Positions 7,626 to 25,230 of a stretch of 64,000 nucleotides of DNA are shown in pieces. Within the stretch, counting starts at the first letter, position 1; each line of letters starts with the position of its first letter. A model generated the notes under the pieces. That model saw only the letters and a program-made list of their open reading frames with translations, was not told where the DNA came from and did not search any database. The DNA lies in IMG/VR virus record IMGVR_UViG_3300025812_000003; one strand, written 5' to 3'. Made by a program: the position numbers and the translations under genes. The stretch is from a virus.

Positions 7626-7831
7626 ACATGCCGACGACCAAGGGTCCGATGTGGGTCATATCCCAGGATCGGGTGCAGCTCTGGAACGGGGACGTGAAGT
7701 TCTACGACGTGCCCAATCCCTGCAAGTTCGACCTGCCGAACAGGCCCCTGCTGCCCGAGGAGGCGGAAGGGGGGCCCGACGTTTTTTTGCCTGCCTGTAA
7801 GGGCTCCACGTCCCTGTCGTACACGTTGTAG
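7622..7831 (+). CDS. Hypothetical protein overlapping the 3' end of the giant ORF
   Basis: ATGA overlap with the previous gene; convergent overlap at 7702-7831. Confidence 0.35.
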   Translation: MNMPTTKGPMWVISQDRVQLWNGDVKFYDVPNPCKFDLPNRPLLPEEAEGGPDVFLPACKGSTSLSYTL

Positions 7832-10800
7832 TCCGTCCCGCCCTTCCGCCACGTCACGGTCAGCAGCCTTTCGGCACCGCCGTGGAACTCCCTGCTCTGC
7901 TCCGGCGTCAGCCTGCGGACGGCCTTGACGACGCCCCTCATGCCGTCAGCCTTCCGGACCACCTCGCTCCCCATGTCCCCCGGCCTGGCCAGCGACGGGT
8001 CCGCCAAATAAATGCGGGACGGGTCGAACACCGCCACCTGGTCGCCATCCAGGAGGCGTCGGATGCCCATCCCCTTGTACCACACGGCGTCGAACCTGGA
8101 CTTGAGGCTGTCGGTCAGCATCTTGGTCGCCGCCACCCGGTCGACCCTGGCGACCTCCGGGCTGTACCCGTTCTTGATCCACCACTTCATCATGGTGTTG
8201 GGGGAGCCGAAGTTGATGGTCTCCAGCCTCGGGACGTCGAGGTAGTAGGACCTGAGCCCCCTGGTGGTGCCGCCGTTGAACGCCTTGGCGATGGCCTTGC
8301 TGGTCGTGAAGTAGATGCCATACCCAAGGTGGTGGACCGGGGCTGGGAGCCCGAGGGCATAGTCCGTCTTCCCCTCGTACCCATGCTGGATTTCCGCCGA
8401 GTTGGCCTCCCCCTCGAAGACCTTGAACCCCTCCCTGTCGATGCCCGCGGCGGCCTGCGGGGTGGTCCCGTGCCATACCGGCCCGAACATGCCGCGGTCG
8501 ACGGCATCCTGCGGGGAGACGGTGCGGTCGGCGGGGAAGGCGAGCTTGGTTGCCGACCCCGTGATCCCCCCCATCGGGCTCCTGACCCATTCGGCGGCGC
8601 GCTCCACAGTGGCGTCCCTTATCGTCCCCCTGCCGTACAGCGTCACCTCTACGATCGCGCCGGCCGGCAGCCTGGCCAGCGCCAGCTCCACCGTCTTGCG
8701 GGCCTTGGCGTACGCCTCCATCTCCCACTTGTCGTTCTTCCCCCAGACCTTCCTGACCGCCACGTGGCCCTTCTCCAGGGCCGCCCCCATCGTCGCCTCC
8801 TGGTCCAGGTAGCCGAGCCCCTCGTCCTTCCAGACCGGCCCCACAAGGCCGAAGTCCACCGCCGAGTCCCCGTGCCCAGCCTCCGCCATCTGGCGGTCGT
8901 CGTACTCGTGCCAGCGCCCCCCGGCCTCCAGCCAGCCGCTCCTCTGGAACGGGGCAAGCTTGGGACGCCTTGCCGCGGCCGTCTTCTCGGGCCCCCACAC
9001 GCTTTCGTAGGCGTCCTTGAGCGGCACCGGGAGGCTGCGGCGGGAGGGGCTCTCCATCTCCCTCGGGTAGTTCCGCTCCATGAACCTGACGAGGTCGTCC
9101 CCGACGAGCGTGATGTCCGCCGCAACGTCCTCCTCGGAGAAGTAGTCCCCCGGCTCCAGGCCAAAGGGGAGGTCGTAGTCGACGTTCCTCTCCCCGCGCA
9201 GGCTCTGGACCTCCGGCCCGGCGTGCCTGTCCTCCCCGAGGTACCGCTGTATGGGCCCGTCCAGGTCCGCCACCACGATGGTGAGCTGCCCGTGCCTCCT
9301 GATGTCGTCCGGGGTGGGGTCGTGCCCCACCGCCCTGCGAACCTTCGACCTGATCCAGCGGGGCATCTCGTCGAAGTACGCCGCCCCCCCTCGGTCCTTG
9401 ATTTCCTGTATGGCATCCTCGCTATCCGTCGCCCCCTGCAGGCACTCCTCCACCCACTTGCCCATCTGGGCCCGTACACCCTGTTCGACGATGGAGGCGT
9501 CCTCGTCGGCGGTCCCGGCATGGAACAGGACCATCTGGCTGCCGGGGTCCACGGACCTGATGATGCGCTCCGCCTCCTGCCAGGTGCCGGAGGCTAGCTT
9601 GAGGAAGGGCCCGCCATGCTGTGTCGCCGTTTTCCCTTCTTCCTCGTCGAGGGCCTCAAGGCATTCCCTCGATGCCAACAGGATGTCGTCCCCGTCCGGG
9701 TAGTTGTCGGGGATGATCCAGCCGGGCATGCTGGAGTTCCGCATCGCGTCGACGATGTCCTCGGAACCGTATGCCTCCATGTTGACGCCAATCATCTCGC
9801 AGAACTTTTCCATTTCCTCCTTGCCGTCGATGCGGGGGAGTCTGATGGGACAGATGACCTTGTACCGGAGGACCTTGCCGCTTTCCTCCCCGCCGTGCCA
9901 GTCCTGGAAGTGCTCGGCGACGGACTCCGACGTGCTGAACCAAGCGGGCATCTCGATGCCGGACGGGTCGAACCTCTGCGAGGTGCCATGGTAGAGGACG
10001 GTGCCCCTGGGGAGGACCTGAGTCTTGCGCCAGCGCCGCCACCATTCGCCCGCCGCCGCCTTGCGCAGGGCGGACCCGTCGAACACGTAGACCGACTCGG
10101 GCTGGCCCCTCCCCTCGTCCAGCCACACGGCCTTGCATCCCCTTGCCTTGGCGTCCTGCACGGCGACGTCTATGGCGTCGGGGTCCCCGGCATACGGCGG
10201 CGCGGCGGGGTGGAATATGCCGTCCTTCCTCATCCTCGCCCGCCTGAGCTCCTCCGTCCTGCCGGTCTGCGTGAACTGGGCCGCCCACGCCTCGTCCGGG
10301 GACCAGTACCTCCCGCCCTTCTTGGACCCCCCACCCTCCCCCCTGAAAAGCAGGATGGTGCCGTCGTCCGCCGCCTTGCCGGGCTGGTGGGCCTGCTCCA
10401 CCACGAATTCCCCCCCGTACCTCTCCTTGAACTGGGCAAAGAAGTCGGGCGGTATTTCCCCGTAGTGGATCACCAGGACGGTGGGATTCTTCCAGTCGTC
10501 CCCCTTGTACTTCCTCCCGTCCCTCACCTCCACGACCGCCAGGATGCGGTTGGAGCCGGAGTAGCCTATGGGCTCCGTGATCCTGGCGGTATCGCGGTTG
10601 TATGCCTCGCCGGGGCGCAGCGGGCGGGCGAACTGGCGAAGCGCCCTGGTGATTTTCTCCACGGCGTCCCTGAAGGCCGCCTCGCCCTCCTCCGGCGAGG
10701 GGATGAGCGCCTGGACGTCCGGTATGCTGTCGTACTCCACGTAGGGGAACGCCTTGTGGTAGGCGTGGCGCAGGTCGTAGGGCTTGGACCTCTTGGCCTC

Positions 10801-13800
10801 GTGGGCGGCGATGCGCAGGAGGGCGGCCTCCCATGCCTCCGGCAACAGGGCGCGCAGGCGCTCCTCCATGCCGGGGTGCAGGCTGCCCTTGTCCTCGCCC
10901 GGCATCTTCCACTTGAATGCCAGGCCCCGGACGGCGTCCTCGACGTACTTCCGCCTCTCGGCGTCGGCGAACTCCTTCCACGACCCGTCCTTGCCCAGGA
11001 AGGTGGGGAGGGAATAGTAGGTGTTGTCGCTCAGGCGTCCCAGCGGATGGCTGAGGTAGAAGACCACGTCGTCCTCGTCCAGGTACATGGTGTTGGGCTG
11101 GAGCTCCATGCAGACGACGACCTCCCGCCCCTCCTCGTTGTGGTCCTTGGGGGCGCTGGCGGCGGTCATGAGGTTGCGGGCGACGTACGTCCCCCCGTAG
11201 CTCACCCGGCTGACGCTCACGGCGCTGGCGGCGGCATCCTCCCCCCAGTTCCTCTCCTTCGGGTCGGGGATCAGCCCCTGCTTGAGGATGCTGCGCAAAT
11301 TCTTGATGCTGCTGCCGTGGTACCAGACGGACTTGGGGGCGGCGAGCTTGGGCGGGATTGGCTTTTGGGTCGAGATTGCCTCGGCGACGGCCTTCGTATC
11401 GTAGAATTCCACCCCCGTTACCGCCGTCGCGGGAATCGTGCCCTCCAGGCTGCTCACGTCGGGGTTATGCCTGTCAAGGAATTGCACGCCCTTTGTCGGT
11501 CTGAACAGGACTAGTGCAACCCGCTTAGAGTTCTCCTGCCGGGCCTTCCGCAGGCCCCATCCGAGGGCCACCCTCCTGTCGGTGCTGATATAAATATGCC
11601 CCCCGCCTGCACCGCCCGTATAATCTGCCTTCAGGGCCGGAGGAACCAATCCATCTTTCTCGATATCCTTTGCGGCAGCGGGCGTCGTCCCGTGATACCA
11701 GATGGACTCGGGAGCGGCGGTCTTGGAGGCGGTCATCCTCCTATCGGACGGGTCGAACCCCTTGCTGTCGACTGCCTTGATCTGATCGGGGCTGAAAACA
11801 ACGTACTCGACGTTGGACTTCCCCCATTGGTCTTTGACCCGGTTAATGATGCCGTCGTATCCCGCGCCCCTGATCCTCTCCGGATGGCGGGAGATGATCT
11901 GCTGCAGGCTCTTGCTTCCATCGGCGGAGCGGAGGTCCTTATAGATTCCCTCGACGCCCCATCCCAGCCTTTCCAATTCCTCCCTGGGACCAAGAAGGCC
12001 GGAATCAAGGAGCGCCTGGGCATTCGCCTTCGTTTTGACCGTCAGGTCCAGCGGGTTCTCGATGCGCAGGTACACCTCGAACACATGCGGGTCGTAGCCG
12101 TCGATGATGCGCTTCTGCCCGAGCATCGGGTCGTATTCCACGCGATAGGTGAACCGCTGGGCAAAGTTCTGGTCCGGAGTGAAGAAGAACCCCACCTTTG
12201 CGTCGGCGGCCTCGGTGTTCCTCCCCTGCATTCCGGGGTTGAACGCCTCGAAGGGCACCCGCTTGCGGTGTATGCCGCCCATGACCTCCTCGGGGATGAC
12301 CCCGGGGTTCTGCTTGTCGAACCTCTCCATGGTATCGACCCATCCATCGAGGCGCTTGTCCACGTCCTCGTCGCCCGGATAGGCCTTGCCCATATGGTCG
12401 AAGGCTAGGCGCACCGCCTTCTTGAGGTCGTCCACCCACTCGGGGCGGTAGTTCTTCCCCCTGGGGCTACCGTGGTACATGACCATGGGGGTGCCGTCCG
12501 GGTTGACCACCTTGGACTTGCCGAACCAGGCCCTGAACTGGGGCGAGTCGGTTACGGCGACGGTGGTCTTGGATGCGGTCACGTGCTCGTACTTGGGCCT
12601 CTGCCACCTCGACGACCCCCTCAGCTTCCAGCCGGTGACGCGGACCGGGGCGTCGTGCCTGAGCGTCACCTCCTTCTCGTCGGAATGGCGGAGGTTCGCC
12701 CAGACGGTGCTGGCCCAGTCGACGTCCTTGAGGGCCACCTCCCCCCGGAAGACGTAGGTCTTCAGGCCCCTGCTGTACTCCGTCCAGTCCTCCTTCTCCC
12801 ATCCCCCCTCCTCGGCGAGGACGGAGTCGGCGTCGTAGGGGACGGCATGGCCTTCGTCCCACGTCCAGTAGATGCCGAACCCCCGCGTGTAGGGATAGCG
12901 GTCCGGCATCTTAACCGCACGGTAGACGACGAGGGGATCGGGAAGCCCGTTGCAGAACTCCCTGAACTCCTGGTACCTGCCGAGGTAGGCATCGCCGTAC
13001 CAGCGCTCGTACTCCTCGGCAGCGGGAAGCTGGGAGGGCATCCCGACCCCCGCCATCAGGGAGTTGTACGACTCCTTCCCAGCGGCGGCCTTCCCGGTCG
13101 GCAGCCCCTGGTACGAGTCCACTGGGACGTACGCCAATATGGCCTTGTCCCCCCTGATCTTGCCTGCCGCCACGCGGTGGTTGCCGTCCCGTATTCTCCC
13201 GTCGCCATCCATCACTATGGGCGGAATGGGGGTTTCCATCCTTGCATACTTCTCCGCAAGGGATGGATCGTAGTCGTCCCCCGCTTCGAGCTTTTGCAGG
13301 GACACCTCCTTGAGGACGTAGTCCCCCCCTGCATCCAGGCCGACCAACTGCTCGGCGTAGGTCCTGTCCTTCCACTCCGGGTGCTGGGACATGACGTAGT
13401 CGACGACCGCCTGACCGCCGATCCTGTCCCCGGCCCGGGCGGCGACCCTGGTGCTCCCGCCCAGGTTTTCCAGCCATTCTATGGCAACCTCGGGGCCGTC
13501 GAACTCCCGGTACATCTTGAGGTAGCCCCCCCATTCCAGGGTTATGGGGACGCCTGCGGGAGGGGGATGATCCCTCAGCAAGGAGATGACGTCCTGCTTC
13601 TGGCCGAGGTTCAGGACTTCCATGTAGATTTTCTCCCGGGCGGAGCACCCGCACCTGGAGAGCCAGTCTGTGGTCACCCTTATCGCCCCCTCCGCCGCCC
13701 ACGCTTCGAGGCCGAGGCTCTTGGCCAGCAGCGGATGGGTGTCCAGCTCCTTGGTGAAGGGATGCAGGACGCCGCCGACCACGAGGCCTCCAGCCTTCCA

Positions 13801-16800
13801 GAATTCCTCGTCGCCTGCGGGGATCGAAGGGTCGGCGGCCGTCTTGGAGGGGTCGAAATCGGGGTTGAAGACGACTTTCCCCTTTGGGTCCCTCACCCAG
13901 ACGACATTCTCGCCGCCCTTCGCCTCCCCTATGTACTCGAACAACTTCCTCAGGGTCACCCTCCCGCCCTGTACTAACCAGCCGGACAGGTCGCTGCGCT
14001 GGTGGACTATGTTCAGGATCTTGTCCACGACCTGGAGCTTCGCCTCCGCGGTCTTGGCGTCGTAGAGGTCGAGCGCCAGCGTAGTAAGCGGCCCAGTGGC
14101 GAAGTCGCTCAGCCTCCAGCTTCCCTCCTCGTCGTCGAAGAAGCTGGGAAGCAGGTCGAAGTACCCTTCCGGGACCTCATGGTCGAGGACCTCCGCCGCG
14201 AACTCCTCCGGGCTCCACGACGTGTGCCTGCACAGGATGGTGTTGACCTCGATCTTGAGGATGTTCTCCGTGACGATGTCGGCGATCTCGTCCATGCCCG
14301 CCTGGTCCCGGACGATCCCCGCCTTGGCGTAATCCTTCCATATCTTCATCAGCCTGGCGGCCGGGACGACCCTCCACCGCTGGCGGTAGTTCTTTTGGAA
14401 CAAGTGCTTTTTGGTGGGGCGCTTGCCGGGCATGGCATAGTCGATGCCGTCCCCGACCACCTTCTTGTACTCGTCCAGGATTTCCCTGGCCACCTCGTCC
14501 CGCAGGTCGGCGTCGGCGTACATGGCGGCATCGGTAAAGGCCGCCTTGGAGGCGGATGCGGTGACATACTGGTAGGGCGGGGCCTTCCATCCGTCGCCTT
14601 CGAACCTCGGATTGAACCATCTCGTAAGGCGTACCCTGGCCCCCCGCCTGAGCCGGATTTCCTTTTCCTCGGACGAGGTTACTATGGCGGTATACCCCCA
14701 GTCCACGTCCTCCAGGGCGACCTCGCCCTGGAAGATGTGGCGGACGCCCTGCCGCTGGGCCGCCGGGCCATACGGCCTGGCCTTGTCGAAGTCCCACGTC
14801 CAGCATACCCCGAAATCTTGGCGGCGGGGCAGGACGGACTCGGAGTCCAGCTTCAGCGCCCTGTAGACGACGAAAGGGTTGGGGAGCTTGAGGAAGAATT
14901 TGCGGGTTTCCAGGTACTCTTCCAATGCCTCGGGCGAAAGGTACTCGCGCATCACATCGACGTCGGGCAACTGGCTGGGGACCCTCACCCCCTCGAACAG
15001 GGACATCAGGTCGCCAGCGGCTTCTTTGGGTGTGCTGGCTGTGACCGCCATCCCCCCCGACAGCCGCGTCCACCTGCCCCCGCCGCGGGCCTTCCACCCG
15101 TCGACCCTGACCCTGGCCCCCTCCTTCAGCCTGACCTCCTCCTCCTCGGGGATGACGGTGTTCAGATAGGCGGTGGGGACCCAGTCCACGTCGTCGGGCG
15201 ACTCGATCACGCCGCGAAAGACGAAGACGTACTTGCCGACCAGGTCCTCGCCGATGTAGGAGCTATCCTCGGACAGCGACCAGTAGACGCCGAAGCCCCC
15301 CTTGTTGACCTCCTTGCCCCAGTCCGGGGAGTCGAAGGACAGGGCCCTGTATGCCGCCAGCGGGAACCTGAGCGCCCCGAGCCTTTCCCTGGCGGCCTCC
15401 CACTGCTCCGTGAGGATGCGGAGGGCCGTCTGGTCCTCGTCTTCCTTCCTTGTCTGGTTGCGTTGCGATACCGGAATCCTGCTGACGGCATCCTCCACCT
15501 TGCCCCAGTCCACCAGCTCGTGGGGCTCGACGTGCCCCCATTCCAGGACCTCGGCGACGGACGGGAAGCCGGTCGGCCCCGAGGCCTTCTTGGGGCCGCG
15601 CACCACCGATAGCTGCATCGGGTCAACCTTGCCCCTGACCCTGGCCCCATGCCCGATGGCGAGGCTCTCGGCGAGCGTGTCGCCGACCTCGGCGTTCCCG
15701 TACATCCGCTTGTTGCGGAGCTGGTCGGGGTCCGGGAGCAGGCGGCGGGCGGTGACGGTGACGGCATAGACGGCTATCGGGGTAGTGGGGCCGTAGGCCA
15801 GCTCCCCGAATGTCTTGGCATGCCCGGGGAACACGGACAGGTAGACGAAGCCCGGGGAGGACTGGATCGACTTCGCCCGTCCGGCGCTGGTCGGGAGGAG
15901 GCCCTCCTCCATCACGGGATGGCCGGCGTCGGTGCCGTGGTAGAGGGTCACGAACCGGTTGGCGTCGCTGCGGAGGAACTGCCCCAGCTCCTTAATCCTC
16001 CTGGGGGTCGGCATGCCGTAGAATACGTCGTGCCACCTGGGGTCGGAGGAGAAGTCCACCGCCCCCTCCCAGGCCGCCGTCTTCGCGGCGGCCTCCTTCT
16101 TCCTCTCCGAGTGCGGGTTCTCCACCAGCTCGAAGAAGTCCGCCGACCTGTCCGTCAGGGGGTCGTCGTAGGACCAGCCCTTGTCGCCGATGGCCTCCTT
16201 CTTGCCGAACGCCCTCTTCCAGCGCGAGAGCCACTTGCCCGCGTCCCACGGGCTGTCGAACCTCTTGTAGACCGAATGCCCGAGGCTGCGATCCTGTATG
16301 AGCTCGATGGCGACCTCCGCGTCGTGGTTGATGCTGTCCAGGGCCTCAAGGATGCGGTGGCGCGGGCCTGCGGCGTCCGTCGCCTCGAAGCTGAGATGGC
16401 GGGAGGTGCCTATGACCCTGACGAGCCCTTCGTCCACCGCTTCCTCCAGATTTTCATACCCCCACCGCTTGGCATCCTCGTTGTGGGCCGTGCTGTATAC
16501 GAATGACCCGTCGAGCTTTATCCATCCATTCGATATTTCCTGCAGGCCGCCCACCTTGGCCACGCTGGATGCCGTCCGGTCACGTTGCTGGGTCACTTTA
16601 GTACTGGGAACGCCCACATAGGCGCGAATGGTCTCGTCGCCCCTGTCCCAGGCCGCCGTCGCCCGGTGCATGCCGTCCACGATGCGCCCCCCTATCACTA
16701 CAATCGGGGGAAACTCGGCGTCCATGTCTTGGTATTCCCGGATAGCCTCCAGGTCCTTAGAGCCTGTAGAGGTCGTGGAACAGTCCGGTATGTACAGGTC

Positions 16801-19800
16801 CTCAAGGGGGATGTCCCTGAGGACGTATCGGCTGGCGCTTGATTCGACCAGCTTCAAGAGGTAGTCCAGCCCTCCCGCCTTGCCCTCTACCCCTCCTCTA
16901 TGCAACTTTGCGATGTAGGAGGTTATCCATCCGGCATCGGCCTCCGGTGGATAGAAGGAATCGCCCGCCTGCCTGGGCATGGTACTTCTCTGCGGCGTGA
17001 CGGTCGCGAACTTGTCGTCTTTTGCTTTGCACAGGATAGACGAGGTCTTCATAGGCTTTAAGACGATGACATCTTCTTCCTTTACCTCGATGGGATAGCC
17101 GTATTCCCAGCTATACGCCTCCGCTTGGTATAGACCATCGACTCTAAACCTTCTTGAGGGGATGCGAATGACAACGGGCTTTCCTCCTTTGGATTTAATG
17201 AAGTTCCTGGCGTACCAAGCGGCAACTGGTTCGGTTGAAAACCACGTTCCGGCCCGCAGGCCCACCTTGAGGATATCCCCCGTGTATGTGCTGGTGGTGC
17301 CGTGGTACAGGAATTCCGGCAATGCCTTGGCCGCTTGCTTGACCAGGGTGCTTCTCTGCGGCGTGACGGTCGCGAACTTCCCGCCGTCCGCCTCGCCCAG
17401 GACGGTGCTGATGCCGTCGTTCATGTATTCGTCGTATATCCTGAAGTGGCTGTCCCACCATTCGTCCTCGGGCTCGTCGGCGGCGTTCCTGCACCCGATG
17501 GTATGTGTTTCCACCCACCATCCGTCGACGACCTTGGAAGTGCCGCACGCCTCCGCGGATGCGCCCGCCAGCATCCTCCCGGCCTCCTCCAGGACGTGCG
17601 GAGGAGGAGGCGAGCTGGCGACCTTGCGGTGCTGGCGGACCTCGATGGCGGGGTCGTAGCCGTCATGGTCGACGAGGCTCCGCCTGACCTCCTCGGCGTC
17701 CGCCGCCACGGCGGGAAGGCTGTCTATCTTCTGCCCGTCGAGGTAGACGTCCCACCAGGGAGCGGCGTCCTCCCGCAGGATCATGGCGTGCTCCATCATC
17801 CTCTTGGCCGCAACCTCCTCGGGATCGGTCATGTACCTCCGGAAGGACTCCTCGTCCACGAGCTTCGCCAAGTCGGTCTTGACGACCTGCCTCTTTCTGA
17901 CCGCGTGGAGGATGTGGGCCCCCTCCTCCAGGATGGTCCTGATCATGTCCTCGGGGCCGAGCCTGGGATTGACGAACATCGCGGGCTCCCCGCGGAACCT
18001 GCCCGCCCCCCCGAAGAACTTCACGTTGGGGTTCTCCACGACCTTGCCGCCCTGTATCGGGCGATCCAGGGCCACGACGGGGACGTCCAGCACCCCCTCG
18101 TACAGCGCCCTGACCTTCCTGCCGACCAGGAGGTCCCCGAGGGTGCCCGCGATCTCCCCGAGGGGGCTCACGGCTATCCTGCGGACGAACCCGTAGTCAA
18201 ACTTGGATGGGAAGGCCGTCCGGCCGGGCTGCCCCATGTACCTGTCCCCCGCTTCCTTCGGAACGGAGGCGGCCTTGCTCGTTTCCACCTCGGCATGGTC
18301 GGGGCCCGCCGCTGGCCCCACCGGGGCTTCCTGCACCTCGACCTTCTTCTTGTACAGGGAACCCCTGTCGGTGCCCTCCGCCTTGCAGATCGGGCAATGG
18401 CGGCTGAGGCCGCCAGCGTCCTTGAGTTTTCGCTCGAACCCCCTGGTGACCCCCTCCCATATCCTCGCCACGGTGAAGCTGATGCCGCGCTCCTTGGCGA
18501 CCTCCATCAGCCTCACCCAGGACGTGCCCTCGTAGTGCCTCTTTATCCTCGCCATCGGGTCGATGGCGAACCCGCAATAGTGCCTGGTGGCCGCCTGCGA
18601 CCCGTGGGGGATGCCGCCGCCAAGGAAGTGGAGCAGGTAGACCGCCCCTAGCTTGCCTTCGTCGGCCGGTGCCCTGGCATACTTGTCCTTCTTCATCTCG
18701 CGGAGCAGCTTGTCAACGTATACCTGGGTGTCCACGGGCTTGCCCACGTTCGTGACCTGGGACGGGTCGAACACGACGAACTCCATGTCCGTAAGGGCGG
18801 CTATGTCGGTATAGATAAGCCCGTCATGGCCCGCCCTCAGCGCCATGCGCGCCACGGAGCGATCCACCCTGGCCCATTCCTCCTGCGTCTGGGGCGGGCC
18901 CGTGTCGTCGGAGAGGGCCTTGTCAAGGTCCTCCATACCGGGAAGGCCGGTCAGCTTTTTGGTGGCGTCCCATTGGTCCTCCGCCACCAGCGGGTTCGCC
19001 ATGCGCAGCGTCGCCACGACGTAGTGCGTCCCGTATTCGGGAGCGGGATCCTCCGAGAAGAACGCCCCTCCCTCCCCCCACTTTATCCTTCCATCGGCCC
19101 CCGTGACGTGGTATCCCTTGAAGATGGCGGGCCTTCCGGTGCGGAACCGTCCCTTGTCGTACTTGAAGGCCGTCATCGTCCTCCATGCCTTCGGGGCCGT
19201 CCTCCATCCATAGCCTCCCTTCTTCCATGCCACGATGAGGGGATGGACGCCCTCCTTCAGGCGAATCTCCCGTTCCTCCTCCCCCGTGGAAGGGGCCATG
19301 TTGGCCTCGAACGTGCCCTCCCAGTCGATGTCGTCCCTGCCCACCTGGGCCTTCAGCAGGATTTTTTCCGTCCCCAGGCCGAAGCTTCCCCAATGGGCCT
19401 CGGCGGCGGCCTCGTCCCACGACCAGAAGATTCCGATCTTCTTGGGATTGACGGCCTTCCTTCCCCCGACCAGGGACAGCATCCGGTAGACGGTCAGGGG
19501 GAACGTCCATCTCCCGTGCTGGCGCAGCAGCTCGTCGTAGCGGCCCTTGAGGTGCTCCTCGGCGTTCCCGTAGATCCACTTCGCCTGCTCCTCCTCGGGA
19601 AGGGCGTCGAACTCCCTCGTCTCGTCGACGTCGGACGGCTCCCACTGGTCCCACGAGTCCACGTCCCGCACCATCCCCTCGATGCCGCCGTGCTGGCGCT
19701 TCCATTCCTCCCATGACGGCATCCCCTCCATGATCCCCGCCGTCTTCGGGTAGAGTGCGCCCTCGTCGATGTAGTATCCCCCGTCGTCCCCTTCCCTTTC

Positions 19801-22800
19801 CTCCGGGTCGGTGAGCGGCCTGTCGGCCTCCCCAACGTACCCCTCCGGCGTCATGGCCCACATCGCGTCCTCGGTCAGCCTCGTCCACTGTCTGCCGTCC
19901 CAGACTTGCAGCCGGGCGGCGGGGATGCTCCTCTCGGTGAAGAAGGCGTCGGCGACGGCGTCGCCTGTCCCCACTTCGTCGGGCTGGACCTTCAGGCGCT
20001 TTGCCTCCTTGGTGCGGAGGATCACGGGGACGAGGCCATCCTCGACCGGGCTGTCGGAATTGTGGTATGCCCACTGGACCGCCCGCTGGTACCAGAAGCC
20101 CACCCCGCGCCATTCGGTCAAGAAGCTCCTTCCCTTCGTGTGCCAGCCATAGAGCCCCCCGATGCTCGCCGGGTGGCCGGTTTCAAGCCCGAGCCAGATG
20201 ATGTCCTCCAGCCGGTTGAAGTAGGTCACGTGGTAGAGCCAGTCGCCGGTGGCCGCCGTCTTTGCCTGTTCCTCCAGCTCCTCCAGGGAAAGCCCCGTCC
20301 TGTTCCCGTCGATGCACTCGGGCTGGGTCCCGTACCCGCCGATGGCCTCCCCCTCGCCAAGGTCCGGGAACTCGTTCTCGCGGTGCGGCGTCTGCTTGTG
20401 GGAGGCCGTGACCATCTTGTTCATCGTCCTGAAGTCGTTGTCCTTCGGCTCCTCGATGCCAGTCAGCCGGATCCTGGCCCCGGGCACCAGGCGTATCTCG
20501 TCCTCGTCGGGGTCCTTGGCGTTGGCATGCAGGGTGCCCTCCCAGTCCACGTCGTCCTCGCTCAGCACCTCGGCCCGCAGGGTGACGATCCCCCCTTCCT
20601 CCCCCCCGACGCTCGGCGTCCATATCGACGACGGGCCCCAGTAGGACTGGGCGCTGTCTACGTTGTCGCTCCAGTATATCCCCACGTTTTCCAGGTTGAC
20701 TTTCTTCCCGGCAGGCACCTCCAGTTGCCGGTAGACCGTCAGGGGGAACTTTATGGAGTTGAGGTACTCCACTTGGTCCGGAAGGGCCCATTCCCGGATT
20801 TTTAAGTCAGCGCCTGCACTCAAGCCAAGGCCCTCCAGGTATTTCCTGGGCGAGCGGGGCATCTCGACCCTCCGCCTGGCGGACGCCGTGACGGGCGCTT
20901 TCGGGGCGAGGAGCGGGCTCCCCGGCTTGGGCTCCTTGCCTGCGGTCGGCGCGGGCACGAGCCACCTGCGGTACTGCTGGAAGTTGGCGACCGCCCAGTC
21001 CACCGCGTCCTGGAGGCGTTCCGCCTCGAACACGGGCCTCCCGTTGCCCCCCTCCGGCAGGCACCATTCCCCACCTCTCTCGTGGATGGGAACGATGTCC
21101 CTTGCGTCCCTGCCCCAGAAGATGACTTGGTCCTCCTCGTCCCCGTAATGGTGAATCCTGATTCCAGATGCCCTGAAAAGCACGGCATGCTTGCCGTATT
21201 TCCTTTCGATGCGCCCCGCCTCGCCTGCCGGGACGGCGAAGTTGTACCCTCCGGTCTTGGCCTTGTCGGTGAAGTAGGTGGTGAGCCCGAGGCGGGCCAG
21301 GTCCCACATCCCCCTCGTGAACCCGTGGAGGGATATTTCGCCGGGCTCGTCGGTCTTGTGGACGAGCCACTGGTTCTTGACGATGCCCTCGTATTCCATG
21401 TACATGAAGGACGGGGCGTCCATGGGATCATCGTCCACGGCCCTCGTTCCCTCGTCGCTCCTCAGGAACTGCTCGCACATCGCGGGCGGCAGGCCGGAGA
21501 ACATGTCGTTGTCGATGAGCTCGTCCAGGTCCTTGGGGGCTTCCCAGCCCTCGGGCAGCTCCTGCCCGGATAGCCAGTCGAAGAAGCGATGCGGGAACTG
21601 GCGGGCCAGCTCCTCGCCCTTTTCGGCGTCCGTCATCGTCAGGTAGCCTTTCAGCCACGCGAGGTCCTGGCGCACGAACGCCTTCTTTAGGCTCCCCACC
21701 TTTGCTCCGTCCGGATTGCACTGCGGGCAGGCGCAGCACGGGCACTTAGGGTCGCCGCAGAAGGCGTGGTACTTCTCGTGTCCCGGCTGTCCTGGCCGGA
21801 CGACGTTCACGTCCGGCTTCCCGAACTGGTCGTGCGTCCCGTCGATAACGGTTCCGTCCTTGAGGACGTTCCATACGTGGTCGAGATGCCCGAAGTTCGG
21901 CCTCCGCCCGTGTGGGGCGGGAATGCCATCAGGAAGGTAGAAACCGCCTTCGATGCCCCAGCCGAATTTCTTGGACGCCGCCTCCGACACGAAGCCGCAT
22001 TGCCCTTCGCTGGCCGCCGCGGAGGCGCTCTCGTCCATGCGTATGCTCCCCCGAATCCTGCGGAGGGCGTCCAGCACTTCGGGCGTCGGCATCGTTTCCT
22101 TCCCGCTGGCCGTAATGCTAAGGTCATCCGGATCGAATGTCCCGGTGTTCCTGTCGGCGGACTTGACTTGGCTGGGGCTGAAGATAACATAAACGTCGCT
22201 TTGAGTCGCCCCGTCATAGACGTCCCTGGCGATGATGCCGTCCCGCCCGTTCTTCTTTGCCCAGTCGAACTCCGCCTTGCGGGGGACTATGCCGTCGAGC
22301 ACGAGCGGGTTTTCGATCTTGAGGTACACCGCCATGACATGGGTGTCGGTGCGAAGCTTCCTGTTGTACATCCGGGCTTGGCTCTTGGCCTCTTCCTCGG
22401 CCTTCTCGATGGTGGGGTAGGGGCCGACCGAGAAGATCGGCTCCTCCCGGAGGGTAAAGACCGCCGCATAGAACTCTCCGTCCTTGCCGTATCCCTGAAT
22501 GCTTGCCTCGTCCGCCTTCTTCTTGGGGCCCGAGTCAGAGAAGAACCTGGCATTGTCCTTGCTGGACGTGAACCAGATTCCCTTTTCGACACCCGCCGCA
22601 CCGGCCCACGAAGTGCCTGCCATGCCCAGGTCGAACGACGACACCCACGGGGACTTGCTGCCATGGTAGACGACCAGCGGCCTTCCCGCTGCATCCACCA
22701 CCCTGGAGTTTCCGAACCACGCGTCCAAGGCTGGCGTGCGGATCGGCCTTGCCGCCGCCTTTTTGATTCCCTCCGTACGGTAGGGCGGCACCCTGGAGAT

Positions 22801-25230
22801 TCCCTTCTTCACCCCCTGCCACCGTGCGGTCGGGGAGATGCGCTTCTTGAGGTAGGGCAGGAGGTCCTTGTACCGGTAGCGCTCCACGGCGCTTATGTGC
22901 TGGGGGCCGACCGGCCCGCGCTTGAGGTACACGTCGATTTCGTCGTCGCCCAATCCTACCCTCGGCTGGAGGTCCATCCCCGCTCCCCTGGGGTCGTCTA
23001 TGCGGACGAGGAACACGTCCGGCATCCTCCCGGGCTCCTTCTCGGGATCGATGCCCTCCTTGAGGCCCTTGCCCAGGGCATCGCCGAGGGCATAGTATAT
23101 GGCCAGGCCCTTGTCCGGGGTGGCGTACGCCGTCCCCCAGAACTTGCCGGGCACGAGGCCCTTCTCCTTTATGGAGTAGGCGGCATCTTCCGACGTCCCG
23201 TGCCAGGCCGTGCCCACATTGCCCGCCCTTCCCGCCGCTTGTTTGTTCTCGGGCGCGAACACGGGCTTGAAGACGTTGAGCTCGATGCTTATCGGGACGG
23301 TGCCCTGCCCGACGAACCTCTTGTAGTTGCTCGGGCTGAACAGGACTATGGAGTCGAACCCCCGTTTCTCCGCCTCCTGCTTCATCCTGGCGTCCAGGAA
23401 GAACCTTGCGGCCACGCCAGCATCGTCCGGGATTCCCCCGAGGCCGAGATCCCGGAGGATGCTCTCCTCGTCCCCCACGAGGGGATTGGCCACGTGGACG
23501 TGGAGCGGGGCGTCTAACGGCCTGCCCCAGAACTCCGCCTCCCTGAAGGTGGAGGCGAGGAACTGCCCCCTCTTGCTATATGCCTTGGGGTCCTCGGGCG
23601 GGACATGCCACCAGTCCTTGGAGTTGATCCTGCGCAGGAGGGCGTCCATGGCTCCCCCGCCCGACGAGCTGGCCGTGACGGAGGTCAGCCATCCTTCCCG
23701 CACGTCGGGCTGCCCCCACATCTCGTCGAACTTGGCCTCCAGCTCCGGCCCCCTTGCGATTGCGTACCCGCCGTAGGGGGAGATGCCCGCCTTGCACAGG
23801 AACCTGCGGTCGGTCGTTTCGACGAGCTTGTACTGGCCCGGGTCCTGCAGCTTGGGGGTCGCCAGCAGCTCTTTCTGCTTCTGGGAGAGGTGGGCGGAAT
23901 ATTGCCACAGCCGGTTGTTGTTCCCGTAGGGATACCTGTGGAGGAGGACGTAGAACGGCTTCTCGTCGTATTCCACCACCATCGCTTGGTCGGATTTCTC
24001 CGTTACGAAGTCCTTGCCGTACTTGGCGTTCCAGCGGTCGGCGACTTCCTTCCAGGACCTCCCGTGCCCGCCCATGACGCCACTCAGCATCTTCACGGTC
24101 TGGGGGGTCATGCCCTCGTTGAGCTTTCCCTGCCAGTAGACGAGCATCTCCTCGTGGTGGGCAAGCTCATGGGCGAGGATGCGCCGAAGGGTTTCATCGT
24201 CCCCGCAAATAGATTTCTGGAGGGTGATGACGGTGTTGGGCTTTCCAATCGTCCACCTGCAATCCCCCAGCCAGCGGGACTTTATGTTGTTCACGACCTT
24301 GAGCTCGGGAACGGGGAGGTCCCCCCGGACGTCGGGCATCAGGGACGCGAGGACGTTCCTGACCTGCCCGTAGTCCATGGCCTTGGCTACTATGCCTTTT
24401 TGATTGAGGGACTTGCGCAGCTTGCCGCCCTCGCCCGTGGTGCCGCTGCTGGTTATCTTTTCGCCCGGGAACTCCTGCCCAACCTTCTCGTACATGGCGG
24501 TGGCCACGCCCTTGCGCCGCCAGGCGGGATCGACGAAGACGTACTGCACCCACACCTCGTCCCTGTATTCGGAGAAGTGCAGGTAACCCACCTTGACGCC
24601 CCGCCTCGTCTCCGTATGGCCGCCCTTGCCATCAGGGACGGACTTCCACGCCCCGGCGTCCTCCCCGGCCCATGCCGTGACCCTGCCGAAAAGCTCGTCC
24701 CTGTGGGCGTCCACGATTTCGAGCTGGCAGGTGAATGCGGGCGTCCCAGTCGCCTTTTTCGGGCGGGCGGGTTCCTGGGGGACGAGCCACTTGACCATCA
24801 GGGGGAGGGTGGGCTTCTCGCCCTCCTCGGCCCATTCTCCGCCTGCCATGCCCACGTGCTCGAAGCCGTGGCGTTCGTACCATTTGGCCAGGTTCATGCC
24901 CTTGAGCGCCCTAACGTTCTTCTCGTATATGCCGACCAGGAGGACGACGGCGTCGCATCCCATGCGCCTTGCCTGCCGGGTAAACCTTTCCAGCGTCTTG
25001 TTTCCCCAGCCCTCGCCGCGAGGGGAGGCGAACATGATGTCGATGACGCCTACCTTCTTGCCGGACAGCATCCGCACAAAGCCCTCGGGGTCGGAAAGGT
25101 GCTCGTTGTCGGCCCATGCCTCCAGGTCCGGGTCGTTTTCCAGGATTCCGCCGATTAGGTCGTAATGAGGCGTGTTATAACTGATTTCCTGCCATGCTGT
25201 CCTGAGGAGCGGGTTTTGTGCGATGCGCAT
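7702..25230 (-). CDS. Giant polyvalent polyprotein (5842 aa), about 34 modules, mostly ADP-ribosyltransferase-like
   Basis: Uninterrupted 17.5-kb ORF. Approximate modules: GNAT 24760-25194 and 24380-24750; SprT-like HELAH 23680-24378; GIY-YIG-like 18277-18669; TILEEGAH zincin-like 17626-18264; ParB-like 16579-16965 and 13093-13437; Cys-His-Asp-like 21692-22104; about 19 ART-like modules (YHG[TS], YHVT or VYR..YW[ST]..ExE). Confidence 0.9.
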   Translation of the reverse strand: MRIAQNPLLRTAWQEISYNTPHYDLIGGILENDPDLEAWADNEHLSDPEGFVRMLSGKKVGVIDIMFASPRGEGWGNKTLERFTRQARRMGCDAVVLLVGIYEKNVRALKGMNLAKWYERHGFEHVGMAGGEWAEEGEKPTLPLMVKWLVPQEPARPKKATGTPAFTCQLEIVDAHRDELFGRVTAWAGEDAGAWKSVPDGKGGHTETRRGVKVGYLHFSEYRDEVWVQYVFVDPAWRRKGVATAMYEKVGQEFPGEKITSSGTTGEGGKLRKSLNQKGIVAKAMDYGQVRNVLASLMPDVRGDLPVPELKVVNNIKSRWLGDCRWTIGKPNTVITLQKSICGDDETLRRILAHELAHHEEMLVYWQGKLNEGMTPQTVKMLSGVMGGHGRSWKEVADRWNAKYGKDFVTEKSDQAMVVEYDEKPFYVLLHRYPYGNNNRLWQYSAHLSQKQKELLATPKLQDPGQYKLVETTDRRFLCKAGISPYGGYAIARGPELEAKFDEMWGQPDVREGWLTSVTASSSGGGAMDALLRRINSKDWWHVPPEDPKAYSKRGQFLASTFREAEFWGRPLDAPLHVHVANPLVGDEESILRDLGLGGIPDDAGVAARFFLDARMKQEAEKRGFDSIVLFSPSNYKRFVGQGTVPISIELNVFKPVFAPENKQAAGRAGNVGTAWHGTSEDAAYSIKEKGLVPGKFWGTAYATPDKGLAIYYALGDALGKGLKEGIDPEKEPGRMPDVFLVRIDDPRGAGMDLQPRVGLGDDEIDVYLKRGPVGPQHISAVERYRYKDLLPYLKKRISPTARWQGVKKGISRVPPYRTEGIKKAAARPIRTPALDAWFGNSRVVDAAGRPLVVYHGSKSPWVSSFDLGMAGTSWAGAAGVEKGIWFTSSKDNARFFSDSGPKKKADEASIQGYGKDGEFYAAVFTLREEPIFSVGPYPTIEKAEEEAKSQARMYNRKLRTDTHVMAVYLKIENPLVLDGIVPRKAEFDWAKKNGRDGIIARDVYDGATQSDVYVIFSPSQVKSADRNTGTFDPDDLSITASGKETMPTPEVLDALRRIRGSIRMDESASAAASEGQCGFVSEAASKKFGWGIEGGFYLPDGIPAPHGRRPNFGHLDHVWNVLKDGTVIDGTHDQFGKPDVNVVRPGQPGHEKYHAFCGDPKCPCCACPQCNPDGAKVGSLKKAFVRQDLAWLKGYLTMTDAEKGEELARQFPHRFFDWLSGQELPEGWEAPKDLDELIDNDMFSGLPPAMCEQFLRSDEGTRAVDDDPMDAPSFMYMEYEGIVKNQWLVHKTDEPGEISLHGFTRGMWDLARLGLTTYFTDKAKTGGYNFAVPAGEAGRIERKYGKHAVLFRASGIRIHHYGDEEDQVIFWGRDARDIVPIHERGGEWCLPEGGNGRPVFEAERLQDAVDWAVANFQQYRRWLVPAPTAGKEPKPGSPLLAPKAPVTASARRRVEMPRSPRKYLEGLGLSAGADLKIREWALPDQVEYLNSIKFPLTVYRQLEVPAGKKVNLENVGIYWSDNVDSAQSYWGPSSIWTPSVGGEEGGIVTLRAEVLSEDDVDWEGTLHANAKDPDEDEIRLVPGARIRLTGIEEPKDNDFRTMNKMVTASHKQTPHRENEFPDLGEGEAIGGYGTQPECIDGNRTGLSLEELEEQAKTAATGDWLYHVTYFNRLEDIIWLGLETGHPASIGGLYGWHTKGRSFLTEWRGVGFWYQRAVQWAYHNSDSPVEDGLVPVILRTKEAKRLKVQPDEVGTGDAVADAFFTERSIPAARLQVWDGRQWTRLTEDAMWAMTPEGYVGEADRPLTDPEEREGDDGGYYIDEGALYPKTAGIMEGMPSWEEWKRQHGGIEGMVRDVDSWDQWEPSDVDETREFDALPEEEQAKWIYGNAEEHLKGRYDELLRQHGRWTFPLTVYRMLSLVGGRKAVNPKKIGIFWSWDEAAAEAHWGSFGLGTEKILLKAQVGRDDIDWEGTFEANMAPSTGEEEREIRLKEGVHPLIVAWKKGGYGWRTAPKAWRTMTAFKYDKGRFRTGRPAIFKGYHVTGADGRIKWGEGGAFFSEDPAPEYGTHYVVATLRMANPLVAEDQWDATKKLTGLPGMEDLDKALSDDTGPPQTQEEWARVDRSVARMALRAGHDGLIYTDIAALTDMEFVVFDPSQVTNVGKPVDTQVYVDKLLREMKKDKYARAPADEGKLGAVYLLHFLGGGIPHGSQAATRHYCGFAIDPMARIKRHYEGTSWVRLMEVAKERGISFTVARIWEGVTRGFERKLKDAGGLSRHCPICKAEGTDRGSLYKKKVEVQEAPVGPAAGPDHAEVETSKAASVPKEAGDRYMGQPGRTAFPSKFDYGFVRRIAVSPLGEIAGTLGDLLVGRKVRALYEGVLDVPVVALDRPIQGGKVVENPNVKFFGGAGRFRGEPAMFVNPRLGPEDMIRTILEEGAHILHAVRKRQVVKTDLAKLVDEESFRRYMTDPEEVAAKRMMEHAMILREDAAPWWDVYLDGQKIDSLPAVAADAEEVRRSLVDHDGYDPAIEVRQHRKVASSPPPPHVLEEAGRMLAGASAEACGTSKVVDGWWVETHTIGCRNAADEPEDEWWDSHFRIYDEYMNDGISTVLGEADGGKFATVTPQRSTLVKQAAKALPEFLYHGTTSTYTGDILKVGLRAGTWFSTEPVAAWYARNFIKSKGGKPVVIRIPSRRFRVDGLYQAEAYSWEYGYPIEVKEEDVIVLKPMKTSSILCKAKDDKFATVTPQRSTMPRQAGDSFYPPEADAGWITSYIAKLHRGGVEGKAGGLDYLLKLVESSASRYVLRDIPLEDLYIPDCSTTSTGSKDLEAIREYQDMDAEFPPIVVIGGRIVDGMHRATAAWDRGDETIRAYVGVPSTKVTQQRDRTASSVAKVGGLQEISNGWIKLDGSFVYSTAHNEDAKRWGYENLEEAVDEGLVRVIGTSRHLSFEATDAAGPRHRILEALDSINHDAEVAIELIQDRSLGHSVYKRFDSPWDAGKWLSRWKRAFGKKEAIGDKGWSYDDPLTDRSADFFELVENPHSERKKEAAAKTAAWEGAVDFSSDPRWHDVFYGMPTPRRIKELGQFLRSDANRFVTLYHGTDAGHPVMEEGLLPTSAGRAKSIQSSPGFVYLSVFPGHAKTFGELAYGPTTPIAVYAVTVTARRLLPDPDQLRNKRMYGNAEVGDTLAESLAIGHGARVRGKVDPMQLSVVRGPKKASGPTGFPSVAEVLEWGHVEPHELVDWGKVEDAVSRIPVSQRNQTRKEDEDQTALRILTEQWEAARERLGALRFPLAAYRALSFDSPDWGKEVNKGGFGVYWSLSEDSSYIGEDLVGKYVFVFRGVIESPDDVDWVPTAYLNTVIPEEEEVRLKEGARVRVDGWKARGGGRWTRLSGGMAVTASTPKEAAGDLMSLFEGVRVPSQLPDVDVMREYLSPEALEEYLETRKFFLKLPNPFVVYRALKLDSESVLPRRQDFGVCWTWDFDKARPYGPAAQRQGVRHIFQGEVALEDVDWGYTAIVTSSEEKEIRLRRGARVRLTRWFNPRFEGDGWKAPPYQYVTASASKAAFTDAAMYADADLRDEVAREILDEYKKVVGDGIDYAMPGKRPTKKHLFQKNYRQRWRVVPAARLMKIWKDYAKAGIVRDQAGMDEIADIVTENILKIEVNTILCRHTSWSPEEFAAEVLDHEVPEGYFDLLPSFFDDEEGSWRLSDFATGPLTTLALDLYDAKTAEAKLQVVDKILNIVHQRSDLSGWLVQGGRVTLRKLFEYIGEAKGGENVVWVRDPKGKVVFNPDFDPSKTAADPSIPAGDEEFWKAGGLVVGGVLHPFTKELDTHPLLAKSLGLEAWAAEGAIRVTTDWLSRCGCSAREKIYMEVLNLGQKQDVISLLRDHPPPAGVPITLEWGGYLKMYREFDGPEVAIEWLENLGGSTRVAARAGDRIGGQAVVDYVMSQHPEWKDRTYAEQLVGLDAGGDYVLKEVSLQKLEAGDDYDPSLAEKYARMETPIPPIVMDGDGRIRDGNHRVAAGKIRGDKAILAYVPVDSYQGLPTGKAAAGKESYNSLMAGVGMPSQLPAAEEYERWYGDAYLGRYQEFREFCNGLPDPLVVYRAVKMPDRYPYTRGFGIYWTWDEGHAVPYDADSVLAEEGGWEKEDWTEYSRGLKTYVFRGEVALKDVDWASTVWANLRHSDEKEVTLRHDAPVRVTGWKLRGSSRWQRPKYEHVTASKTTVAVTDSPQFRAWFGKSKVVNPDGTPMVMYHGSPRGKNYRPEWVDDLKKAVRLAFDHMGKAYPGDEDVDKRLDGWVDTMERFDKQNPGVIPEEVMGGIHRKRVPFEAFNPGMQGRNTEAADAKVGFFFTPDQNFAQRFTYRVEYDPMLGQKRIIDGYDPHVFEVYLRIENPLDLTVKTKANAQALLDSGLLGPREELERLGWGVEGIYKDLRSADGSKSLQQIISRHPERIRGAGYDGIINRVKDQWGKSNVEYVVFSPDQIKAVDSKGFDPSDRRMTASKTAAPESIWYHGTTPAAAKDIEKDGLVPPALKADYTGGAGGGHIYISTDRRVALGWGLRKARQENSKRVALVLFRPTKGVQFLDRHNPDVSSLEGTIPATAVTGVEFYDTKAVAEAISTQKPIPPKLAAPKSVWYHGSSIKNLRSILKQGLIPDPKERNWGEDAAASAVSVSRVSYGGTYVARNLMTAASAPKDHNEEGREVVVCMELQPNTMYLDEDDVVFYLSHPLGRLSDNTYYSLPTFLGKDGSWKEFADAERRKYVEDAVRGLAFKWKMPGEDKGSLHPGMEERLRALLPEAWEAALLRIAAHEAKRSKPYDLRHAYHKAFPYVEYDSIPDVQALIPSPEEGEAAFRDAVEKITRALRQFARPLRPGEAYNRDTARITEPIGYSGSNRILAVVEVRDGRKYKGDDWKNPTVLVIHYGEIPPDFFAQFKERYGGEFVVEQAHQPGKAADDGTILLFRGEGGGSKKGGRYWSPDEAWAAQFTQTGRTEELRRARMRKDGIFHPAAPPYAGDPDAIDVAVQDAKARGCKAVWLDEGRGQPESVYVFDGSALRKAAAGEWWRRWRKTQVLPRGTVLYHGTSQRFDPSGIEMPAWFSTSESVAEHFQDWHGGEESGKVLRYKVICPIRLPRIDGKEEMEKFCEMIGVNMEAYGSEDIVDAMRNSSMPGWIIPDNYPDGDDILLASRECLEALDEEEGKTATQHGGPFLKLASGTWQEAERIIRSVDPGSQMVLFHAGTADEDASIVEQGVRAQMGKWVEECLQGATDSEDAIQEIKDRGGAAYFDEMPRWIRSKVRRAVGHDPTPDDIRRHGQLTIVVADLDGPIQRYLGEDRHAGPEVQSLRGERNVDYDLPFGLEPGDYFSEEDVAADITLVGDDLVRFMERNYPREMESPSRRSLPVPLKDAYESVWGPEKTAAARRPKLAPFQRSGWLEAGGRWHEYDDRQMAEAGHGDSAVDFGLVGPVWKDEGLGYLDQEATMGAALEKGHVAVRKVWGKNDKWEMEAYAKARKTVELALARLPAGAIVEVTLYGRGTIRDATVERAAEWVRSPMGGITGSATKLAFPADRTVSPQDAVDRGMFGPVWHGTTPQAAAGIDREGFKVFEGEANSAEIQHGYEGKTDYALGLPAPVHHLGYGIYFTTSKAIAKAFNGGTTRGLRSYYLDVPRLETINFGSPNTMMKWWIKNGYSPEVARVDRVAATKMLTDSLKSRFDAVWYKGMGIRRLLDGDQVAVFDPSRIYLADPSLARPGDMGSEVVRKADGMRGVVKAVRRLTPEQSREFHGGAERLLTVTWRKGGTDYNVYDRDVEPLQAGKKTSGPPSASSGSRGLFGRSNLQGLGTS
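11315..11724. repeat. Imperfect 35-nt direct repeat (11315-11349 / 11690-11724) flanking one ART module
   Basis: 29/35 identity by hand alignment; offset 375 nt (125 codons). The copies encode KLAAPKSVWYHG and KTAAPESIWYHG. Confidence 0.75.
16985..17379. repeat. Exact 29-nt direct repeat (16985-17013 / 17351-17379) flanking one ART module
   Basis: CTTCTCTGCGGCGTGACGGTCGCGAACTT occurs twice, offset 366 nt (122 codons), each encoding KFATVTPQRS on the minus strand. Confidence 0.95.

Follow-up and report, generated by a model that had tools for sequence, protein, structure and literature searches.

Is a small domain that lies between two copies of a short sequence, inside a single viral reading frame, a cassette that comes and goes, or is it the product of one past insertion? 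The question is raised by a stretch of viral DNA of 64,000 nucleotides (nt), the IMG/VR record IMGVR_UViG_3300025812_000003. The whole stretch is called the window here, and all positions are counted from its first letter. The two copies lie in one open reading frame (ORF) on the minus strand (7702-25230), which encodes a polyvalent (multi-effector) protein of 5842 amino acids (aa) without interruption. The domain between them has the fold of ADP-ribosyltransferases (ART). A preliminary description, made from the sequence alone, considered the locus to be a recently inserted cassette. In our reading, the repeat pair is probably the fixed scar of an in-frame domain insertion by general recombination, with no dedicated cassette system involved. 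This is favored because the module is foreign at synonymous sites, and because relatives carry the repeated peptide only once and have different modules after it. In-frame insertion of a module is therefore retained as the best reading of the locus, but evidence for a cassette system was not obtained.

The exact direct repeat is 29 nt long and is found at 16985-17013 and 17351-17379. The two copies show a single mismatch when compared over 33 nt. Their offset is 366 nt, or 122 codons, and they are in the same frame. These coordinates are all as given in the preliminary description. A search of the repeat, which had been proposed there, was run on both strands of the window and returned two copies, with no third. 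The chance expectation for exact repeats of at least 29 nt in 64 kb is ~5e-8. With a local tandem set at 33467-33629 left aside, the window contains no other dispersed exact repeat of at least 20 nt. The tandem set is located in another gene region and consists of three GC-rich direct repeats of 40 nt (95% and 70% identity, with spacing of 75 and 48 nt). Homology between the two copies was extended by a repeat-finder to 72 nt with 79% identity (16965-17036 versus 17331-17402). Each copy was known to encode KFATVTPQRS; the shared peptide is in fact KFATVTPQRST, at aa 2618 and aa 2740, and is the longest repeated peptide of the 5842-aa protein. The insert between the repeats is 337 nt (LVKQAA through KAKDD), which is too short for a recombinase gene. 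There is no inverted repeat or attC-like structure at either border of the insert, and the 29-nt repeat is not present at the other ~30 junctions of the polyprotein.

The upstream copy in the sense of translation, copy A (minus strand, exact repeat 17351-17379, extended repeat 17331-17402), is the native end of a domain. This domain, designated U (minus strand, 17347-17628, aa 2535-2628), is an uncharacterized alpha/beta domain whose last hairpin ends in KFATVTPQRS. In the AlphaFold2 model of domain U, with a predicted local distance difference test score (pLDDT) of 87, KFATVTP forms the strand E84-90. It is the final strand of the hairpin, with pLDDT >90. The conserved motif of domain U is ETHT-x-GCR-[ND]-AADEPE. 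The domain shows no match to Pfam, its best structural neighbor in PDB has a Z score of only 4.7, and no match was found among AlphaFold Database clusters. It appears to be an undescribed domain, found only in polyvalent proteins of giant phages.

Homologues of domain U (~95 aa, 50-60% identity) are observed in P0003, P0037 to P0039, L001, L002, L034/L038, L052, and P0020. All of these domains end in the same strand, F-[AV]-T-[VIM]-T-P-[QW], and each has a single copy of it. Copy A is thus the terminal beta-strand whose peptide also ends U in relatives. The module after the U tail differs from lineage to lineage (P0003, L001, L002, L038, P0037/P0039, and P0020). A second U tail was never found in the distant relatives. 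Relatives with both repeats and a module similar to its flanks in GC content had been named as a case that would speak against a recent insertion; the distant relatives carry the tail once only. A degenerate DNA pattern for KFATVTPQR detected one further relative (L034/L038) and ~15 unrelated small proteins in which the peptide is coincidental. The top match of the search against representative sequences, P0017, was rejected as spurious, as it is a repetitive protein that weakly matches the tail 19 times.

Copy B (minus strand, 16981-17043; exact repeat 16985-17013, extended repeat 16965-17036) is different. Its sequence, SSILCKAKDD-KFATVTPQRST, corresponds to a degenerate U tail with no U domain before it. 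In the AlphaFold2 model, it occupies residues 196-216 with pLDDT ~50 and no secondary structure, and is predicted to be a disordered linker. On the basis of these models, copy B is considered to be an orphan piece of domain U within a linker.

The inserted module itself (minus strand, 17050-17346, aa 2629-2727) is a small H-G-T domain with the ART fold, similar to the NAD+ lobe of Tpt1/KptA. Residues 2636-2727 superpose on residues 90-181 of Tpt1 (8tg4_A) with a Z score of 11.7 and a root-mean-square deviation of 2.2 over 84 residues (VIA-align). The top Foldseek matches are all Tpt1/KptA; the next structural matches are PARP, DarT, and toxin ARTs, with Z scores of 6-7. The module part of the AlphaFold2 model has pLDDT >90. 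H-G-T is invariant in the family alignment. Homologues with 37-47% identity are either standalone proteins of 115-150 aa or modules of other polyvalent proteins. The helix LVKQAA after copy A belongs to the module, and P0003 has LVEQNKQA before its homologous ART.

The module is superposable on the C-terminal NAD+ lobe of the RNA 2'-phosphotransferase Tpt1/KptA (PDB 8tg4, 9ld6, and 6e3a), with H-G-T at the first strand. Unlike Tpt1/KptA, it is without the N-terminal RNA lobe, in which most of the Arg-His-Arg-Arg tetrad is located. The score of the module against PF01885 is 12.6 bits, below the cut-off of 26. Because the RNA lobe is absent and the PF01885 score is below the cut-off, the modeled fold is assigned to a distinct small family related to the NAD lobe of Tpt1, and not to the Tpt1 enzyme. 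Long Foldseek alignments gave a hint that U and the ART module together might represent a two-lobed Tpt1. This was rejected, as the rigid alignment covers the ART lobe only. Domain U alone likewise has no Tpt1-like match, its best Z score being the 4.7 given above. Tandem duplication of homologous modules was also rejected, since U and the ART module share only the tail of 21 aa.

The composition of the module is distinct from that of the rest of the ORF. The GC content is 0.483 for 17041-17220 and 0.733 for 17581-17640, and the earlier hand counts of about 48% and about 73% were accurate. Between the repeats it is 0.528, against an ORF mean of 0.649 (standard deviation 0.032). The GC content at third codon positions (GC3) is 0.873 for the whole ORF (standard deviation 0.08 in 40-codon windows) and 0.64 for the module. 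The 40-codon window with the minimum in the ORF starts at aa 2661 and has a GC3 of 0.475, ~5 standard deviations below the mean. It is thus synonymous sites that deviate, and amino-acid content does not account for the anomaly. Maximal-scoring-segment analysis gave 16888-17250 on the minus strand (aa 2661-2781, GC3 0.60) as the maximal low-GC3 segment of the ORF; the segment reaches aa 2930 if a milder low state is assumed.

The flanks of the two copies also differ in composition. In copy A, a GC-rich N flank is followed, beyond the core, by an AT-richer C flank that is part of the module. The order is opposite in copy B, whose N flank is AT-rich, as the module is, and whose C flank is GC-richer. 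The N flank of copy B most likely arrived with the module, because drift at a GC3 of 0.87 would not make an AT-rich flank.

The identity of the core requires an explanation of its own. In L038, the same nine residues are encoded with 4 synonymous differences in 27 nt. For this reason, peptide conservation and codon bias do not explain the identity of 29 out of 29 nt between the copies. Similarity continues at a lower level on both sides of the core. On the N side, 14 of 24 nt are identical (P ~0.002-0.006 against random in-frame pairs, module pairs included), and on the C side 14 of 21 nt (P ~0.001 against random in-frame pairs). BLASTP between U and the module plus its tail aligned the 21-aa tail only, with STVLGEADGG opposite SSILCKAKDD. 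The pair was also considered as the template and variable repeats of a diversity-generating retroelement. This was rejected: mismatches are not limited to adenines but affect T and C as well, and none of the many A's in the core has changed.

A specific route can be proposed for the insertion, with somewhat less than even confidence. The donor would be a polyvalent gene of lower GC content, in which a U'-tail, a linker, and an ART module are arranged in this order. P0020 has an ART of this family after U, and in P0003 one lies a module further on. The donor segment would have been joined in a circularly permuted order, as core, LVKQAA, ART, joint, donor tail flank, and core. The observed topology would result if a circularized donor fragment recombined with the resident tail by a single crossover. 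Alternatively, template switching during co-infection could produce it, by two switches within the identical core of 29-36 nt and one microhomology jump at the joint. The exact core would then be the exchange tract. Copy A would be resident on its left side and donor on its right, and copy B donor on its left and resident on its right. The illegitimate joint, designated J, is placed at 17036/17037 on the minus strand, between the ART end (…KPMKTSS) and the orphan U tail (ILCKAKDD…), where nucleotide homology between the copies stops. The composition switch between the flanks of the copies agrees with the prediction of this permuted donor.

Several observations weigh against the insertion scar and this route to it. 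GC3 is ~0.8 over the first 32 codons of the module, and values are low as well (0.72-0.75) in the ParB-like module that follows copy B. The preliminary description had the low-GC module bracketed by the repeats. Its low composition is real (GC3 0.64 versus 0.873), but the low-GC3 tract is not bounded by the repeats: it starts inside the module and runs through copy B, with borders that differ from theirs. The one mismatch adjoining the core, AGC in copy A versus AGT in copy B, is opposite to the expectation of the model, although a single site has little weight. Part of the flank similarity could reflect a recurrent linker motif and not common descent. The 366-nt circle or the triple template switch is inferred, not observed. 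No donor was found by the nucleotide search of GenBank phages, which returned no match at all, by the degenerate KFATVTPQR pattern, or by the searches with the ParB-like module. Finally, a relative close enough to show the empty site is not present in the collections, where the nearest U domains are 54-64% identical.

The present state of the locus was examined in populations. The protein belongs to a cluster of 41 members, with at least 99.2% identity among those read. All 14 members covering the region have both copies and an invariant, identical module. Twenty metagenome runs from 20 studies contain 100% of the sampled words of the stretch. In 4 runs, contigs extend across both repeats, without any difference or deletion joint. 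The predicted deletion junction has 0 matches in metagenome contigs, and the protein recurs on several independent contigs from JGI, ENA, and NCBI. The module is retained in every sampled population. A deletion allele, which had been anticipated from the repeats, thus finds no support in the junction search, in the spanning contigs, or in the 14 proteins. It is true that excision between the repeats would leave an intact ORF, as had been pointed out, but this is automatic for any in-frame repeat. The 29-bp repeats could allow rare one-way deletion, of which no case was seen. In three of the four runs, the contig graph branches at 18205-18234, where a minor variant at ~10-17% of the main depth diverges upstream. 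This branch matches the strain-variable stretch of the cluster members at aa ~1100-2200; the ART region is invariant.

Gain and loss of a module after the same domain is observed in a related lineage with 54% identity in the U domain. P0037 (925 aa, L030:2507-5284) and P0039 (1090 aa, L033:3001-6273; also in L052) are 99.2% identical in DNA outside one insertion/deletion (indel). They differ by a clean in-frame module of 495 nt (165 aa) directly after the linker of the U tail. The borders of the indel are TGKAA / … RTVTA / GKEV, with ~4 nt of microhomology (CGGC). The GC content of the insert is 0.58, compared with 0.64 for the gene. Modules do come and go at the U junction, and they do so via microhomology in the linker and not via a dedicated repeat. 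The comparison of relatives that had been suggested for this locus gives a positive result here: presence and absence of a module after the same domain is confirmed, but the indel does not use this repeat.

Among other explanations, one is a duplication similar to a target-site duplication. A foreign segment of 337 nt would have been placed after the U tail, and only the resident core of 29-36 nt would have been duplicated, either through repair of a staggered break or through a template switch with return ~30 nt upstream. A single event suffices here. The near-perfect identity over 33-36 nt followed by an abrupt drop is what such an event would leave, and the AGC/AGT mismatch fits one later mutation. 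The flank similarity would be attributed to chance and to the linker motif (K/R)-Q-A-(A/G); on the C side it does overlap this motif, which recurs through the protein. The N side is more difficult, since 14 of 24 identical nt are seldom reached by random in-frame pairs (P ~0.002-0.006) and the BLASTP match extends to 21 aa. This explanation is considered unlikely. Somewhat more doubtful still is an older duplication, or the import of a larger block (~aa 2661-2930, perhaps from a lineage of lower GC content), followed by short-tract gene conversion of the core. An identical core with diverged flanks is the classic picture of a conversion tract, and the maximal low-GC3 segment crosses copy B into the ParB-like module. 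However, GC3 is stepped along the block (0.55, then ~0.72) and not uniform, and an ART followed by the tail is seen in no relative. An earlier insertion of the same kind would still be needed, and the question would merely be postponed.

Active cassette exchange, in which the repeat is a dedicated site for routine insertion and excision of modules as in integrons or polymorphic toxins, is very improbable. In-frame repeats do flank a compositionally foreign module, and a module is present or absent after the same domain in the related lineage. Nevertheless, there are two repeat copies in 64 kb and none at the other junctions, and the borders have no inverted-repeat or attC-like structure. The P0037/P0039 indel uses 4 nt of microhomology in place of this repeat. 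The module does not vary among the 14 proteins or the 20 runs, no deletion junction was found, and the repeat simply codes for a structural beta-strand. The resemblance to integrons and polymorphic toxins in the preliminary description is consequently not upheld, with a single repeat pair, no inverted repeat at the borders, no room for a recombinase, and a module that is internal to the protein. An assembly artefact, that is, a chimeric join at the short repeat, had been named as a possible refutation and can practically be dismissed. Nothing beyond the metagenomic origin of the sequence speaks for it. A repeat of 29 nt is shorter than the k-mers of assemblers, all sampled words are contained in 20 runs, the region is covered without differences by four independent contig sets, and the several JGI, ENA, and NCBI contigs agree.

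The insertion scar may be one instance of a wider process. Co-infecting phages could trade single effector modules in frame at domain-terminal strands and linkers, which would act as recurrent homologous landing pads in a manner analogous to exon shuffling. The repeat would still permit precise loss at low frequency, and the module would be kept by selection. This generalization is speculative and rather improbable as a whole.

The module after copy B (minus strand, 16576-16980, aa 2751-2885) is ParB-like, with a DG-x-HR motif. It matches ParB-like regions of P0003 by BLASTP and has no Pfam match. Part of it (16576-16740 on the minus strand, aa ~2828-2884) shows a weak tblastn match, with 48% identity over 57 aa, to the Tunturiibacter jumbo phage Tunturi_5. 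The matched gene is annotated as a portal protein, and it is the only match to a cultured phage. It suggests, if only weakly, an acidobacterium (Acidobacteriota) of peat or tundra soils as the host. The runs that contain the region are from peat, wetland, and soil samples. Among the NCBI copies of the polyprotein, one has been assigned to a metagenome-assembled genome of Thermoplasmata, probably by mis-binning.

In the 5842-aa protein, Pfam detects ART-PolyVal in two separate thirds (three matched stretches) and GNAT above the cut-off. PARP is barely over the cut-off, without any single stretch passing, and SprT-like is sub-threshold. A portal protein, a DNA polymerase, a clamp loader, and a minor-head/DarB-like protein are encoded in the same window, and the same protein is also found on metagenome contigs of up to 207 kb. 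Because of this set of Pfam domains and the virion and replication neighbors, the ORF is assigned to the polyvalent proteins of phages and conjugative elements as defined by Iyer et al. (Iyer, Burroughs, Anand, de Souza, and Aravind 2017, J Bacteriol 199:e00245-17, PMC5512222), in a large (jumbo) phage.

The junctions and modules of this protein show further patterns. The motif [VIMK]-T-A-[AS] occurs 14 times in the ORF, compared with 0.7 expected from composition, and mostly at module borders. P0003 has the same junction pattern, K-T-A-[SA]. The motif could be a processing site, or it could simply be a conserved terminus that the module families have. Another small H-G-T ART module contains the tract (aa 4509-4589) with the second-lowest GC3 in the ORF. 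This module is one of two adjacent paralogous H-G-T ART modules at 11347-11724 on the minus strand (aa 4503-4627), with a GC3 of 0.72 for the first and 0.96 for its neighbor. Their N-termini share 30 of 39 nt at an offset of 375 nt. The pair gives the impression of tandem paralogues that differ in age or origin, the kind of duplication rejected above for U and the inserted module. The polyprotein is a compositional mosaic, module by module, because a low-GC3 ART tract lies there beside a high-GC3 paralogue.

The locus can be compared with known systems of module insertion. It shares with integron cassettes and polymorphic-toxin tips the modular replacement of conflict effectors and the foreign composition of modules. 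Unlike integron gene cassettes, it has no promoterless cassette array. The borders lack an attC-like inverted repeat, and no IntI was noted in the window, which was not searched exhaustively for an integrase. Unlike in polymorphic toxins, the module is internal (aa 2629-2727 of 5842) and ~3100 residues follow it in frame, so that there is no C-terminal tip; immunity genes and orphan tips are also absent.

A closer likeness is to the insertions of prophage e14 and phage 21 in icd of E. coli, which duplicate the end of the gene. In those cases, the incoming DNA carries a diverged copy of the target end, and recombination within a short identical core preserves the target while placing a second, partial copy beyond the insert. 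Those elements are several kilobases long and use an integrase. As in such Campbell-type insertions, two copies of the target end flank the insert here, with a core of 29 nt, 72 nt at 79% identity, and diverged flanks. The differences are that the insert is 337 nt, consists of a protein module only, and lies in frame within one ORF with no recombinase. In addition, no empty-site allele was found among the proteins, runs, and contigs examined.

As in the polyvalent proteins described in PMC5512222, many effector domains related to conflict are found in one chain (ART-PolyVal, GNAT, and ParB-like, with weak PARP and sub-threshold SprT-like), the gene is near virion genes, and the domain order varies among relatives. 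The present protein is far larger, at 5842 aa, than those described there, which have 2-15 domains. Polyvalent proteins are thought to be injected arsenals of counter-defense with rapidly changing domain sets, and domain addition has so far been inferred from architectures. PMC5512222 compares protein architectures and does not address scars in the DNA, whereas the nucleotide-level scar of one insertion is preserved here. The locus is a record of one domain addition at this level, with a duplicated strand, a module foreign at synonymous sites, and one inferred illegitimate joint. The scar and the polymorphism in the sister lineage together point to ordinary homologous and microhomology-mediated recombination at domain ends and linkers rather than to specialized cassette machinery. 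The finding is real and mechanistically informative, but what it represents is a recombination scar that has become fixed, as opposed to an exchange system in operation.

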